Positions 6,013-10,177 of a DNA stretch of 10,524 bases are shown one piece after another. This stretch comes from a virus. Its lineage: Duplodnaviria > Heunggongvirae > Uroviricota > Caudoviricetes. Both the position numbers and the translations under genes were made by a program. The DNA is taken from positions 1-10,524 of IMG/VR virus record IMGVR_UViG_2609459794_000002. One strand, 5' to 3'. How positions within the stretch are numbered: the stretch's first letter is position 1; each line of letters starts with the position of its first letter. The notes beneath the pieces were generated by a model. The model did not search any database and was not told where the DNA came from. It saw nothing but the letters and a program-made list of their open reading frames with translations.

Positions 6013-6890
6013 AAACGCCCACCATTCCCACCCTTCTGGGGCCGGACGGCATGACATCGCTGCGCGAATATGCCGGTTATCACGGCGGTGGCAGCGGATT
6101 TGGTGGGCAGTTGCGGGCGTGGAACCCACCGAGTGAAAGTGTGGATGCAGCCCTGCTGCCCAACTTTACCCGTGGCAATGCCCGCGCAGACGATCTGGTA
6201 CGCAATAACGGCTATGCCGCCAACGCCATCCAGCTGCATCAGGATCATATCGTCGGGTCTTTTTTCCGGCTCAGTCATCGCCCAAGCTGACGCTATCTGG
6301 GCATCGGGGAGGAAGAAGCCCGTGCCTTTTCCCGCGAGGTTGAAGCGGCATGGAAAGAATTTGCCGAGGATGACTGCTGCTGCATTGACGTTGAGCGAAA
6401 ACGCACGTTTACCATGATGATTCGGGAAGGTGTGGCCATGCACGCCTTTAACGGTGAACTGTTCGTTCAGGCCACCTGGGATACCAGTTCATCGCGGCTG
6501 TTCAGGACACAGTTCCGGATGGTCAGCCCGAAGCGCATCAGCAACCCGAACAATACCGGCGACAGCCGGAACTGCCGTGCCGGTGTGCAGATTAATGACA
6601 GCGGTGCGGCGCTGGGATATTACGTCAGCGAGGACGGGTATCCTGGCTGGATGCCGCAGAAATGGACATGGATACCCCGCGAGTTACCCGGCGGTCGTGC
6701 TTCGTTCATTCACGTCTTTGAACCCGTGGAGGACGGGCAGACCCGCGGTGCAAATGTGTTTTACAGCGTGATGGAGCAGATGAAGATGCTCGACACGCTG
6801 CAGAACACGCAGCTGCAGAGCGCCATTGTGAAGGCGATTTATGTCTATCATCTCACCGTAGTTGCCCGCATCGTTCGCCAACTCCACTGA
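6009..6890 (+). pseudogene. B: Portal protein gene B, inactivated: in-frame TGA at 6288-6290 and 3' truncation with loss of lambda similarity near 6840
   Basis: The N-terminus [28 protein letters not shown] matches lambda gpB. One in-frame TGA sits where lambda has TGG (Trp) in ...HRPSWRYLGIGEEE..., and the same frame continues portal-like (RYLGIGEEEARAF ... MMIREGVAMHAF ... QSAIVKA). It then diverges and stops at 6888-6890, about 294 codons against 533 in lambda B. Confidence 0.8.
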
Positions 6891-6966
6891 AACCCTTGCT
6901 GCGTCTGGAATGTCGTTTTCCATGCTTTTGATGACCGTTCATCACCCTTCCAGTTTTTCGCGGTTT

Positions 6967-7020
6967 TGTGTATTGCAATGTGTATTGCAAATTGGCGATC
7001 GGGATGGGTGTGTATTGCAA
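6967..7020 (+). repeat. Three direct copies of TGTGTATTGCAA (6967-6978, 6979-6990, 7009-7020) immediately upstream of the integrase gene
   Basis: Read directly: two perfect tandem 12-mers plus a third copy 18 bp downstream, ending 18 bp before the int ATG. Confidence 0.85.
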
Positions 7021-7038
7021 ATCTCTTGAGGGCTTTTA

Positions 7039-8280
7039 ATGGCTATTGAAAACAAACTCAGTGACAAACTGTTAAAGAGTCTTGTCGGAAAACGGCAGGA
7101 CAAACAAAAAACAATAGCGGATGGGCGCGGGTTGTCTGTGCGTGTAAGCATGGTTGGGGGGATCAGCTTTGTTTTTTACTATCGTCTTGGTGGCAGGGAA
7201 TCCCCTCCGGTATGGCTTACACTTGGTCGCTATCCTGACATGTCTCTTGCAACGGCCAGGCGCATGCGTGATCAGTGCCGTGAATGGCTGGCTGAAAATC
7301 TGGACCCCCGCAGGCAAATAAAACTTGCTGCCGAAAAAACTATGCAACCAGTGACCGTAAGGGATGCGCTGTTTTACTGGTACGACAATCACGCCACAAC
7401 AGCCAGAAAAGAGCATGAATATTTAATAAAACGATTTGAAAAGCATATCTTCCCCTATATCGGTGATATGGCTATAGAACAGTGCAAATTACACACATGG
7501 CTTACCGTCTTTGACAGGATCAAAAAAAATGCGCCTGTTATGTCTGGTGCAATTTTTCTTGATATCAAACAGGCGTTGCGTTTTTGTCGCGTCAGGCAAT
7601 ACATCGCGTGCGATCCCTTTGGAGATATTAACGTAAGTTATGTCGGGCGCTCATCCGGTATAAGGGATCGCGTTCTTAATATCAATGAAACCGCTGATGT
7701 ATGGTCTTATGCTTACGGTAATAATTTGCTAACTCTGTCATCAATATATAACCGAAGAATAATGGTTATCTGCCTGGTGTTTGGTTGCCGACAGCAGGAG
7801 GCGAGGCTATCCACCTGGGACGAATGGGATTTAAAAAACTGGGTATGGACAGTCCCAAAAGAGCACAGCAAAAACAAGGAGGCTATAGTAAGGCCTGTTC
7901 CTGACGGAATAAAACAATGGATCGTTAATCTTTACGCAGAAACAAAAAATCGCGGTTATGTTGTCGGTTGTGCTTTGCAAAGGGCGACAATAACAGGGGC
8001 TGCAAACAGAATATGCAGGCGTCTTGGTCATGATACTAATGGCTTGTGGTGCATACATGATTTCAGGCGCACATTTTCCACTACGCTTAATGATATGGGG
8101 GCGGATCCTTATATTGTCGAACTTCTTTTAGGTCATAAAGTGAAAGGGGTTGCTGGTGTTTACAATAAAAGCAGGCATATAAAGAAAAAACTTGAGGTGC
8201 TTAATATGTGGGTTAATTACCTTAATACGATAGCAGGATTTAACAACAACGTTATCGAGCTTAATAAAGAGGTGGTGTGA
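7039..8280 (+). CDS. int: Tyrosine recombinase / phage integrase (P4-like family)
   Basis: 413 aa. N-terminal arm-binding-like region (IADGRGLSVRV...FVFYYRLGGRE...LTLGRYPDMSLATARRMRDQ...LDP). C-terminal catalytic signatures: IHDFRRT (His-x-x-Arg), LLGH, and a Tyr in GVYNKS. GAGGG Shine-Dalgarno 7 nt upstream. Confidence 0.9.
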   Translation: MAIENKLSDKLLKSLVGKRQDKQKTIADGRGLSVRVSMVGGISFVFYYRLGGRESPPVWLTLGRYPDMSLATARRMRDQCREWLAENLDPRRQIKLAAEKTMQPVTVRDALFYWYDNHATTARKEHEYLIKRFEKHIFPYIGDMAIEQCKLHTWLTVFDRIKKNAPVMSGAIFLDIKQALRFCRVRQYIACDPFGDINVSYVGRSSGIRDRVLNINETADVWSYAYGNNLLTLSSIYNRRIMVICLVFGCRQQEARLSTWDEWDLKNWVWTVPKEHSKNKEAIVRPVPDGIKQWIVNLYAETKNRGYVVGCALQRATITGAANRICRRLGHDTNGLWCIHDFRRTFSTTLNDMGADPYIVELLLGHKVKGVAGVYNKSRHIKKKLEVLNMWVNYLNTIAGFNNNVIELNKEVV

Positions 8281-8281
8281 T

Positions 8282-8539
8282 ATGGCAATTTATTCTCTTG
8301 TTGATGAAAACGATTTGCGCACAATGAAGGACATTGATCGGTTCATTCGTGAAAAAGAGTGCATAGCACTTACCACGCTGGCAAACTCAACACGCTGGAA
8401 AATGGAGCAGGCAGGTAAATTCCCGCGACGTATCAAGATCGGTGAACGTGCTGCAGGGTATCGACTTTCAGAGGTTCAGGCATGGATCCGTGGTGAGTGG
8501 CATCCTGGGTGGAAACCTGGAAAAACAAAACAGCAATAA
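8282..8539 (+). CDS. alpA: AlpA-family transcriptional regulator / excisionase-like protein
   Basis: 85 aa starting 1 nt after the int stop. LANSTRWKMEQAGKFPRRIKIGERAAGYRLSEVQAWIR fits the AlpA / MerR-like excisionase HTH pattern. Confidence 0.75.
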   Translation: MAIYSLVDENDLRTMKDIDRFIREKECIALTTLANSTRWKMEQAGKFPRRIKIGERAAGYRLSEVQAWIRGEWHPGWKPGKTKQQ

Positions 8540-8552
8540 CCAGTAAATAATG

Positions 8553-8575
8553 CCCCTCATCACGAGGGGTTTTTT
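8553..8575 (+). terminator. Rho-independent terminator after alpA
   Basis: Perfect hairpin CCCCTC-ATCAC-GAGGGG (8553-8569) followed by TTTTTT. Confidence 0.7.
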
Positions 8576-8595
8576 GTCTATAAGGTAAAAACGCG

Positions 8596-9174: not shown

Positions 9175-9203
9175 CAAAACAAAGGCGACCGCAAAAGGGT
9201 CGC
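9174..9203 (-). terminator. Terminator-like hairpin between convergent genes, oriented for the minus-strand transcript
   Basis: Perfect 7-bp stem GGCGACC / GGTCGCC with a 7-nt loop (9183-9203). On the minus strand it is followed by TTTGTTTTG. It lies between the Bro-N stop and the stop of the minus-strand 59-aa ORF. Confidence 0.45.
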
Positions 9204-9270
9204 CAGTGGGAACAAGGGAAAACAAAAGCATCACCAACAATGCCACATTTGCGGCTGGTGGGCAATGTGA

Positions 9271-9450
9271 TCAGTCAGATTTGGTTCGTTCCAAGGTTTG
9301 CAACGAGAGCTTTTTCCTGTGCTCTTTAAGGAATTTCTCAAGAGCAAACGAACAAGGTGCGAATCTTTCTGATTCATGTTCATGCGCTATATTTTTGCGT
9401 CGTCTCTTACGAGTTGGTGATGGTGTTTTGGTTGATTCTGTGTCGCTCAT
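9271..9450 (-). CDS. Small highly basic hypothetical protein (59 aa), not in the supplied ORF track
   Basis: Hand translation of the minus strand: MSDTESTKTPSPTRKRRRKNIAHEHESERFAPCSFALEKFLKEHRKKLSLQTLERTKSD. AGGA 8 nt upstream of the ATG. Lies 57 nt downstream of the 101-aa gene on the same strand and is followed by the convergent hairpin. Confidence 0.4.
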   Translation of the reverse strand: MSDTESTKTPSPTRKRRRKNIAHEHESERFAPCSFALEKFLKEHRKKLSLQTLERTKSD

Positions 9451-9507
9451 GGTGCTGTCCTGTAAAGCAATGCGCCTGCGTTCCTCAAACTATGGCGCTG
9501 ATATTGG

Positions 9508-9813
9508 CTATTCATGCTCTTTGACCTTGCGTCGCTGGAGTTCTTCACGCGCGACGGTGACGAGTTGCCCGATCTCCTCGGCTGCTTTGATGCCGATTTG
9601 TTCGACCTTAGCCAGGGCATCCAGTGACGACACAAGGGGATTTTCTCCGCTGCCTTCTGCTTGGCGGCGGGCTATTTCTCCGCGCATGGCGGTTACGATA
9701 AATCCGGCATTGCTTTCACCGTCCAGCTTAACGGATTCCATCCCTTGCATAACATCTAGTGGGACTCTGACAGTTGTCAGTTGTGATTTTGCGTTTTTGT
9801 TAGCCGTTGCCAT
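9508..9813 (-). CDS. Hypothetical regulator with an RHH-like N-terminus (101 aa)
   Basis: GGAG Shine-Dalgarno 9 nt upstream of the ATG. TTVRVPLDVMQGMESVKLDGESNAGFIVTAMRGEIARR resembles a ribbon-helix-helix fold. Transcribed divergently from the operator region. Confidence 0.55.
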   Translation of the reverse strand: MATANKNAKSQLTTVRVPLDVMQGMESVKLDGESNAGFIVTAMRGEIARRQAEGSGENPLVSSLDALAKVEQIGIKAAEEIGQLVTVAREELQRRKVKEHE

Positions 9814-9834
9814 TTCTGAAACTCCTAATCATCG

Positions 9835-9912
9835 GTGTGTTTCAGTATACACAAAAAAAGAAATACAAAAAGCCTTGACGTGTGTTTCATGCGCTCATAA
9901 CATGAAACACAC
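9835..9912. promoter_or_regulatory. Divergent promoter/operator region: perfect 12-bp inverted repeat with 9-bp spacer (9880-9912), a third half-site at 9836-9845, and candidate -35/-10 elements
   Basis: GTGTGTTTCATG (9880-9891) and CATGAAACACAC (9901-9912) form the palindrome. TTGACG (9875-9880) with a 17-bp spacer to TAACAT (9898-9903) is a candidate plus-strand promoter overlapped by the palindrome. The minus strand has a TATACT -10-like hexamer next to the third half-site. Confidence 0.55.
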
Positions 9913-10003
9913 CGAAAGGATTGTTGAAATACAAAGAGCAACGCCCCGCAGTGCTGGGAACACATACGGGGCGTCTAACCAACAACGTAAACTAGGAGCC
10001 GTT

Positions 10004-10177
10004 ATGGTTGCTGTAAATCATATACCACACCTTGTACACACACAAACGGCCTTTGTGTGGCGTTTTCTGGCACTGAGTGCCGGAGAATCTCAAATCATCC
10101 ACGTAACCGCCTGGACGGAACGCGAAGCGCGTAGCCGTTGCCCGTCCGGTTGTGTTGCTGTATTCGCTGCAAAAATC
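10004..10177 (+). pseudogene. 5' part of an unknown gene, apparently interrupted by the IS1 insertion
   Basis: ATG at 10004 preceded by AGGAG with a 5-nt spacer. The ORF (MVAVNHIPHLVHTQTAFVWRFLALSAGESQIIHVTAWTEREARSRCPSGCVAVFAAKI) runs straight into the IS1 terminal inverted repeat at 10178. Confidence 0.4.

Follow-up and report, generated by a model that had tools for sequence, protein, structure and literature searches.

The DNA analysed here is a stretch of 10,524 nucleotides, hereafter the window, corresponding to positions 1 to 10,524 of the IMG/VR virus record IMGVR_UViG_2609459794_000002. With a probability of roughly 0.93, its segment 6839-10177 belongs to a helper-embedded phage-inducible chromosomal island (HE-PICI) of the site group B:Phage_portal_2:241, of which it forms the left end with the Integration zone, the Bro zone, the switch and the first 58 codons of the early operon, and which is inserted in the portal gene of a lambdoid helper prophage. 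Both the element class and the site group are already known and were published in 2023 (Tommasini, Mageeney & Williams, NAR Genom Bioinform 5:lqad036; PMC10111431). The main value of the analysis is a correct annotation: what appears as a stray integrase in a defective prophage at the DLP12 site would be the stump of a helper-embedded satellite.

Integration Site and Intact Copies

The Pfam match of the portal gene to Phage_portal_2 stops at profile position 242, right at the junction with island DNA. The first base specific to the island is 6839, the interrupted portal frame reads on into island DNA as far as a stop at 6890, and the G+C content falls from ~57% to 40-48% from ~6840 on. The initial annotation, made from the letters of the window, had placed the end of the similarity to gene B near 6840, which is right within 2 nt.

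A megablast search with positions 6700-10300 as query against 5426 complete E. coli genomes showed that the portal-int junction is common to 56 of them, with 99.8-99.9% identity as far as 10177. The intact island measures 10.9 kb and interrupts portal gene B of a lambdoid prophage, with which it shares its orientation. In strain EC93 (L001) the sequence AAGGCGAT is present at both ends of the island (20130-20137 and 31029-31036), within attL gtgAAGGCGATttatgtctatc and attR cataAAGGCGATgtatgccgcc, which share it. Beyond the island, the portal gene of EC93 continues with the 3' part that the window lacks, and the other lambda-type head and tail genes come next. When window sequence ending at 6838 is fused to EC93 sequence starting at 31037, the result is an in-frame, full-length portal of the lambda B type (...QSAIVKAMYAATIESELD...). 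A 290-bp probe spanning this reconstructed empty site had matches in 3119 of the 5426 genomes (probe coverage of at least 80%). Since the portal halves flank the island and join in frame, and the empty site is common, the element is a 10.9-kb integrative island inserted by site-specific recombination. The junctions predicted after excision are ...GTGAAGGCGATGTATGCC... for attB (the restored portal) and ...CATAAAGGCGATTTATGTC... for attP.

These results bear out the initial annotation in its view of a helper-exploiting satellite in the head region of a helper-type prophage, here of the Gram-negative PICI type. The intact copies with their ends and att repeats, and the uninterrupted B gene with which it had proposed to locate the junction, were all found. 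It had left the choice between insertion and recombination into the prophage, of which site-specific integration stood and general recombination did not; the supposedly compact island of 3.3 kb turned out to be just the left third of a larger one.

Beyond the point where the window ends, the EC93 island encodes three small proteins, DUF4222, a primase, a single-stranded DNA-binding protein (SSB), a major capsid protein, a decoration protein, a helix-turn-helix (HTH) protein, a small terminase subunit (TerS) and one hypothetical protein; lysis, tail, large terminase (TerL) and portal genes are absent from it. The layout is the same in strain E41, and in both strains the late zone consists of the capsid, decoration, HTH, TerS and hypothetical genes only. 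Among the relatives, the satellite capsid protein is 42% identical to helper E, and the satellite TerS is 37% identical to helper Nu1, with conservation mainly in the C-terminal half. The cos site of an intact satellite (L001, 29207-29272), upstream of the Nu1-like terS gene, has a cosN and neighbouring bases identical to those of the helper, while the sequence differs where the helper has cosB. This comparison suggests that the satellite TerS redirects packaging.

Additionally, a scan of IMG/VR with the integrase yielded 24 loci, and int is preserved at its start in 23 of them. On the island side, the junction starts with TTAT in all 23, and with TTATGTCTAT in all except the most divergent one. 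On the portal side, at least six different alleles adjoin this island end, and in one locus an integrase of 76% identity lies in a portal gene of 67% identity, joined at the same codon. Compared with EC93, the helper part 2813-6838 differs at 90 of 4026 sites (2.2%) and the island part 6839-10177 at 3 of 3339 (0.09%), a divergence ~25 times below that of the flanking helper DNA.

The published study (PMC10111431) mapped 491 HE-PICIs to 14 sites in lambda-cognate late genes, B:Phage_portal_2:241 among them, and its Supplementary File 1 contains E. coli members of ~11 kb at B_Phage_portal_2_241, with the identity block 'aaggcgat' and helpers designated Eco####.60.R or.59.icd. The published attL of Eco10269.11.B_Phage_portal_2_241 is the same as window ~6777-6937 where compared by eye. 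A doubled motif, tgTGTATTGCantgTGTATTGCa, is described as unique to HE-PICIs, at distances of 81±2 bp (upstream) and 132±2 bp (downstream) from the attP centre (PMC10111431). In the window, the downstream doubled motif has its first TGTATTGC at 6969 and the centre of AAGGCGATTTATG is at 6837, a distance of 132 bp; the upstream arm falls outside the window, and in EC93 (L001) the upstream copy ends at 30954, 81 bp from the attP centre at 31035. The doubled motif is kept in 23 of the 23 IMG/VR loci with the int start. The motifs of the int-proximal attP arm probably serve as binding sites for the arm domain of the integrase or for AlpA.

Published HE-PICIs show the zone order Integration (int, alpA), Bro, Replication (primase, SSB) and Late, and an inward int with alpA directly behind it is the feature that separates PICIs from prophages (PMC10111431). 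All four zones are present in the intact relatives, and the window keeps Integration, Bro and the start of the third. As in Gram-negative PICIs, alpA lies beside int, lysis and tail genes are absent, and the 10.9 kb are within the range of ~10-15 kb.

Related islands were also detected outside E. coli. In Edwardsiella tarda CP100789 (L006, 12178-16315), P2-like baseplate and tail-fibre genes (Baseplate_J, Phage_Wedge1, Gp53-like_C, Caudo_TAP) are immediately followed, in the same orientation, by a related int-alpA-Bro-YlcI-primase island. This island may represent a satellite embedded in a helper prophage of the myovirus type. Another E. tarda genome (L005) carries a related island whose int end borders the chromosomal genes folD/cysS.

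Integrase, alpA and Bro-N Genes

The features of the window are detailed in Table 1. The tyrosine integrase, alpA and Bro-N genes, the two small minus-strand genes and the divergent operator region had all been indicated by the initial annotation, and each was recovered at the expected coordinates, the first three with Pfam support. The Phage_integrase domain matched with E=1.7e-14, and the PDB sequence matches of the protein correspond to the N-terminal domain of CP4-like integrases. The catalytic set R-K-H-R-H-Y, whose absence had been named beforehand as an argument against a functional island, is present as R251, K278/K280, H340, R343, H366 and Y375; H340/R343/H366/Y375 align with XerD H244/R247/H270/Y279, and R251 and the lysine were assigned from the position of box I and the Pfam domain match only. 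The integrase is apparently intact.

The alpA product is annotated in PHROG as 'excisionase and transcriptional regulator' and, by analogy, is the excisionase and transcriptional activator of the PICI cycle. The Bro-N product, which is part of the Bro zone, matched phrog_2593 with E=2e-83, a family with an anti-repressor-like label. The integrase, alpA, Bro-N and YlcI/YnfO open reading frames (ORFs) are all intact in the window copy.

A distant blastn search with int gave only short matches of ~75% identity, and other HE-PICI subclades are therefore beyond reach at the DNA level. Two match contexts were examined, and each was a chromosomal PICI, the first apparently at the fis locus and the second adjoining rcnR. 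The integrase search of the genome contig collection found no relatives.

Table 1. Features of the window (positions in the window; aa, amino acids).
Feature	Positions	Strand	Remarks
Lysozyme R	83-580
Rz	565-1035
KilA-N/ORF11CD3 gene	1237-1734		Between Rz and cos region
DUF1398 gene	2275-2700	minus	141 aa; low G+C
Helper YlcI/YnfO gene	2742-2975	minus	77 aa; directly upstream of cos
Helper cos	3143-3208		cosN GGGCGGCGACCT at 3175-3186
Nu1	3364-3909
Terminase A	3884-5809
W	5806-6012
Portal gene B, 5' part (lambda gene B type)	6009-6838	+	Pfam Phage_portal_2; ends in att identity block
attL identity block AAGGCGAT	6831-6838	+	8 bp; crossover region, site B:Phage_portal_2:241
int-proximal attP arm	6839-7038	+	Doubled motif TGTGTATTGCAATGTGTATTGCA 6967-6989; third TGTATTGC 7011-7018
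Tyrosine integrase, P4/CP4-57 type	7039-8280	+	413 aa; Pfam Arm-DNA-bind_3, Phage_int_M, Phage_integrase
alpA	8282-8539	+	85 aa; begins 1 nt past int stop; Pfam Phage_AlpA E=5e-14
Intrinsic-terminator-like hairpin GCCCCTCATCACGAGGGG and T run	8552-8578	+	Between alpA and Bro-N gene
Bro-N family gene ('Bro zone')	8596-9174	+	192 aa; Pfam Bro-N E=5e-20
Terminator-like hairpin GGCGACC-N7-GGTCGCC and T run	9184-9204	minus	Would end leftward ylcI-ORF59 unit
ORF59	9271-9450	minus	59 aa; phrog_21027 E=5e-15; AGGA 7 nt before ATG
YlcI/YnfO-family protein	9508-9813	minus	101 aa; NCBIfam YlcI_YnfO_N E=1.6e-17
Divergent switch region	9814-10003		190 bp; three GTGTGTTTCA sites, promoter, leader hairpin, motif CTAACCAACAACG
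Icd-like gene, first 58 codons	10004-10177	+	NCBIfam phage_ICD_like on intact 65-aa homologue
IS1 right end	10178-10524	minus	Inverted repeat GGTAATGACTCC from 10178; 3' part of transposase gene

Switch Region and YlcI/YnfO Protein

The gene for the 101-aa protein runs divergently from the early operon. Between the two, a sigma-70-like rightward promoter was recognised (-35 TTGACG at 9875-9880, -10 TAACAT at 9898-9903), together with three exact GTGTGTTTCA sequences, at 9835, at 9880 and, on the reverse strand, at 9903-9912; a fourth copy is absent from the window. Three or more matches to GTGTGTTTCA, with up to 1 mismatch, occurred in just 5 of 200 shuffled sequences. Sites 2 and 3 have the form GTGTGTTTCATG-N9-CATGAAACACAC and bracket the rightward -35/-10. 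The initial annotation could assign none of the small genes to a family of assignable function; two of them belong to named families, YlcI/YnfO and Icd-like, by NCBIfam. In intact islands the Icd-like gene heads the early operon, which runs on to DUF4222, primase and SSB (compared with L001). ORF59 lies inside the exchangeable switch module described below, has no RefSeq annotation and is plausibly a gene.

An alignment of 35 homologues of the YlcI/YnfO protein showed that the ~32 N-terminal residues are variable and the C-terminal helix is conserved. The AlphaFold2 (AF2) model built from that alignment (mean predicted local distance difference test score, pLDDT, 84.6) has helices at residues 19-28, 35-54 and 59-100 and an extended segment at residues ~6-17, which DSSP did not call as a strand. 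A single-sequence AF2 model was discarded (pLDDT 65, N-terminal domain <50). The sole Foldseek match of the model was Arc, a weak one (E=8.5); weak matches to PSK_trans_fac were obtained for 26 of the 35 members, and a search of the protein against PDB sequences gave no significant match. The protein looks like a predicted N-terminal ribbon-helix-helix (RHH) domain followed by a long C-terminal helix.

Islands that share identical int-alpA-bro differ in the switch cassette, and in the mosaic relatives the left edge of the exchange lies ~100 bp beyond the bro stop codon. By sequence comparison, members of the island family exchange the switch as a mobile module. Alternative cassettes, comprising ORF59, the ylcI gene, the operators and icd, were seen in the IMG/VR loci L007, L010, L018, L019 and L020-L022 when compared with window 9275-10177. 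Across the E. coli and Edwardsiella islands, five N-terminal types pair with five repeated sequences, with conserved positions relative to the promoter: KSQLTTVRVP with GTGTGTTTCA, KSAKKNIRFP with TGTGCGCACA, KSQTVAARVP with GTGTTGAAC, KSQSLTARIP with CTTACA/TGTAAG (identical in E. coli and Edwardsiella) and KSQALKARVP with GTGTGGYCCAC. The operator spacings are 45 + 23 bp in the window and 47 + 23 bp in the chromosomal PICI adjoining rcnR. Such covariation is what a repressor and its operators would be expected to show, which is not proof of binding.

The master repressor of enterobacterial PICIs was called unclear by Fillol-Salom et al. 2018 (PMC6092414), and on silencing the HE-PICI study points only to RNA repressors in some members (PMC10111431). 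The literature search found no function assigned to YlcI/YnfO/DUF3950, and nothing on an RHH master repressor of Gram-negative PICIs. We tentatively propose, at odds slightly below even, that the YlcI/YnfO protein is this master repressor and immunity determinant, an RHH protein acting at three to four short operators over the -35/-10 of the early promoter, with repressor and operators swapped as one cassette. The comparison of the switches provides a concrete candidate for how Gram-negative islands stay silent, a question left open by Fillol-Salom et al. 2018, and this repressor-operator cassette is the only part of the analysis that might add to existing knowledge.

The helper carries a paralogue of the candidate repressor next to its cos site, 17% identical to it (alignment A1). 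Island-type operator sequences of all types were sought in the helper region and none was found. Cross-talk between helper and satellite through this family is a possibility.

The leader of the early operon contains a hairpin (9941-9973, ACGCCCCG...CGGGGCGT) conserved over the five switch types, with compensatory changes in two stem pairs (alignment columns 22/43 and 26/38) and a single-sequence fold z-score of just -1.1. It is followed by a near-invariant CTAACCA(A/C)CAACG (9975-9987) and a second small hairpin before the Icd-like Shine-Dalgarno sequence. The leader hairpin gave no Rfam match, and a search for a P4-style 'seqB' partner complementary to the leader motif CTAACCAACAACG gave no candidate above chance.

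Proposed Life Cycle of Intact Copies

In the resting state, the early promoter of an intact island would probably be held off by the divergent YlcI/YnfO-family protein, a putative RHH protein, at the three GTGTGTTTCA operators. The insertion splits the portal gene without providing a replacement, and the helper would therefore make no portal protein until the island leaves. Induction of the helper would lead to expression of AlpA and integrase. The int-proximal attP arm (6839-7038) was searched for promoter-like sites and none was found, and for this reason int-alpA may be expressed by read-through of antiterminated late transcription of the helper, probably running from gene B into int-alpA and crossing the terminator at 8552; the same read-through was proposed by the authors of the 2023 HE-PICI study (PMC10111431). 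AlpA is the activator of the PICI cycle in EcCICFT073, where it is expressed in dependence on the helper and not on SOS (PMC6092414).

Int and AlpA would then recombine attL with attR within AAGGCGAT, restoring the portal ORF. In the HE-PICI 11capE, precise excision occurs ~2 h after mitomycin C, following composite replication (PMC10111431). The circular island would replicate by its own primase and SSB, and would be packaged from its own lambda-type cos site with its own Nu1-like TerS, capsid and decoration proteins; the helper would supply TerL, portal, protease and tails. The island TerS would direct the helper gpA to the island's own cosB.

Truncation by IS1

The window copy does not reach the replication and late genes. 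As the initial annotation had noted, it is clipped by IS1, whose inverted repeat begins at 10178 and which cuts the Icd-like gene after codon 58 (10177/10178); the transposase domain was detected at 10193-10459 on the minus strand (Pfam DDE_Tnp_IS1, E=6e-48). The genome of E. coli KH_005 is 99.95% identical to window 1-8326 and carries the same IS1 end in the same orientation (L031, 22323-23039) at the window equivalent of 8326. This position is 1.85 kb deeper in the island, and cusS comes immediately after IS1. The same IS1 end at two island positions in genomes of 99.95% identity, with cusS beyond, indicates nested IS1 adjacent deletions from one fixed IS1 in the lineage of the window, as judged from the sequences.

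The portal stub of the window contains a TGG>TGA nonsense codon at 6288-6290 (W94stop) that is not present in 17 other loci; the portal stub of KH_005 likewise has an annotated internal stop. The annotation of the 5' portal fragment reads 'phage portal protein, missing C-terminus' in EC93 as well as in KH_005. The shared nonsense codon places the genome of the window and KH_005 in one lineage, and because of it precise excision would not restore a working portal here. By analogy with KH_005, the DNA to the right of 10177 is probably a deletion reaching the cusS side, in which attR and the replication and packaging genes are gone, and the helper late genes would likewise have been deleted in the genome of the window. 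The window copy is probably a remnant that is no longer mobile. This lineage documents a composite decay, by a nonsense codon in the split portal gene and by nested IS1 deletions entering the island from the right. Independent IS1 insertions within int were observed in E41 (L002) and in the IMG/VR locus L030.

Alternative Explanations

After a plain insertion of IS1, the remainder of the island, attR and the late genes of the helper would lie beyond the window, excision would still be possible and only the early operon would be interrupted. The window ends 347 bp into IS1, and E41 has plain IS1 insertions in an otherwise complete copy, both of which agree with this explanation; the deeper IS1 end followed by cusS in KH_005, which is the signature of nested deletions, and the shared nonsense codon stand against it and make it unlikely. 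The two explanations differ in the sequence expected to the right of IS1, which would be GCAAAAATC and then CGCCAGGGAGTG after a plain insertion, and CAAACATCTCGTGAAAC and then cusS after a deletion.

As to the nature of the element itself, an integrase followed by a small excisionase-like gene at the start of a segment beside phage DNA, and a Bro-N gene of a kind frequent in temperate phages, could also be expected at the int-xis end of a second conventional lambdoid prophage, in tandem or recombined with the first. The portal gene, however, resumes exactly 10.9 kb further on with its halves in frame, the DNA in between has no lysis, tail, TerL or portal genes, and the inward int with alpA directly behind is the PICI arrangement (PMC10111431). 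A megablast search of the island against 50,697 phage records gave no match, so that the segment is not a contiguous part of a phage known from these records, an outcome that the initial annotation had considered decisive against its proposal. A second prophage is thus very improbable. The P4/CP4-57-type integrase, the AlpA/Vis homologue, the Icd-like gene and the P4-family-like primase of the relatives recall a P4-like satellite of a P2-type helper that entered the portal gene by chance, and the initial annotation had named both organisations; the PICI-like one was upheld and the P4-like one was not. The genes sid, psu, delta and epsilon are not annotated in the intact copies, where the remote homology of the hypothetical genes was not searched, and neither the window nor the full island gave a match to C4/isrK (the P4 CI RNA) or to any other credible Rfam family at E<=1, two weak hits (mir-578 and a snoRNA) being dismissed as chance. 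Moreover, the late genes and cosN are of the lambda type, and the integration site recurs across many portal alleles, hence not by chance; this origin is highly unlikely. The major capsid, decoration and small terminase genes of the intact relatives could point to a capsid-forming PICI (cf-PICI), for which the helper provides tails only. The cf-PICIs are reported to encode portal, protease, TerL and head-tail connectors (10.1101/2022.09.08.507074), whereas the intact copies are without portal, prohead protease, TerL and head-tail connector genes and have a size of just 10.9 kb, which leaves this explanation hardly any weight.

Some points also weigh against the identification as an HE-PICI. 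The exact IS1 junction at 10177/10178 is absent from the 5426 complete E. coli genomes and from the GTDB representatives. Membership of the HE-PICI clade is deduced from sequence identity with catalogued members, and the expression of int by read-through and the repressor role of the YlcI/YnfO protein are both points that we infer. The only HE-PICI with demonstrated excision is 11capE, of the site E:Phage_cap_E:80, and the authors of that study could not recover particles (PMC10111431).

Helper Prophage

According to the ORF and domain scans, the left 6.8 kb of the window are the start of the late region of a lambdoid prophage. The genes emrE, ybcK, rusA, essD and rrrD of KH_005 place this helper at the DLP12 locus. 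The helper stretch 1-2812 differs from EC93, and satellite-bearing helper prophages are therefore themselves mosaic. The DUF1398 ORF lies in a patch of 33-36% G+C, with the lysis genes on one side and cos on the other, and is probably a moron; the PHROG label of its family, 'head protein', is doubtful given the position and orientation of the gene.

Comparison with Known Systems

The closest known system is the HE-PICI site group B:Phage_portal_2:241, exemplified by Eco10269.11.B_Phage_portal_2_241 (helper Eco10269.60.R), with the same portal target codon, block AAGGCGAT and attL. The site group further shares the doubled TGTATTGC motif with its spacing, the zone order of the intact copies and the size of ~11 kb. 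Unlike the catalogued members, the window copy is the first third only, IS1 having taken the place of what followed, and a nonsense codon interrupts the portal stub of the helper. In contrast to some HE-PICIs of the published study (PMC10111431), the subgroup described here lacks a C4/isrK RNA match and has the YlcI/YnfO protein and its candidate operators at the switch.

Eco567.11capE, located in the capsid gene E of prophage 50icd, has the same lifestyle and belongs to the same integrase clade by its authors' definition. It is likewise co-oriented in a helper late gene, brings no replacement sequence and has its own E-like capsid gene, but its target gene and site are different (E:Phage_cap_E:80, with a 10-bp identity block) and it is devoid of the terS gene that is present in this subgroup. 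PICIs of the EcCICFT073 type (Fillol-Salom et al. 2018, ISME J 12:2114) also have int followed by alpA in the same orientation, a primase replication module, a size of ~10-15 kb, lambdoid helpers and cos packaging, but they occupy chromosomal sites and act on the helper only in trans. Satellite P4 shares a related integrase family, an AlpA/Vis homologue, a large primase and a size of ~11 kb; it differs in integrating at tRNA-Leu and not in a phage gene, and the present island has no annotated sid/psu/delta genes and no detectable CI RNA, and its late genes and cos are of the lambda type and not of the P2 type.

Finally, the element resembles the systems of regulated gene integrity or 'active lysogeny', such as Bacillus skin in sigK and Listeria phi10403S in comK, in which a split gene is restored by timed precise excision. 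Here, unlike in those systems, the split gene belongs to the helper phage, another mobile element, and the timing would serve the satellite and not the cell.

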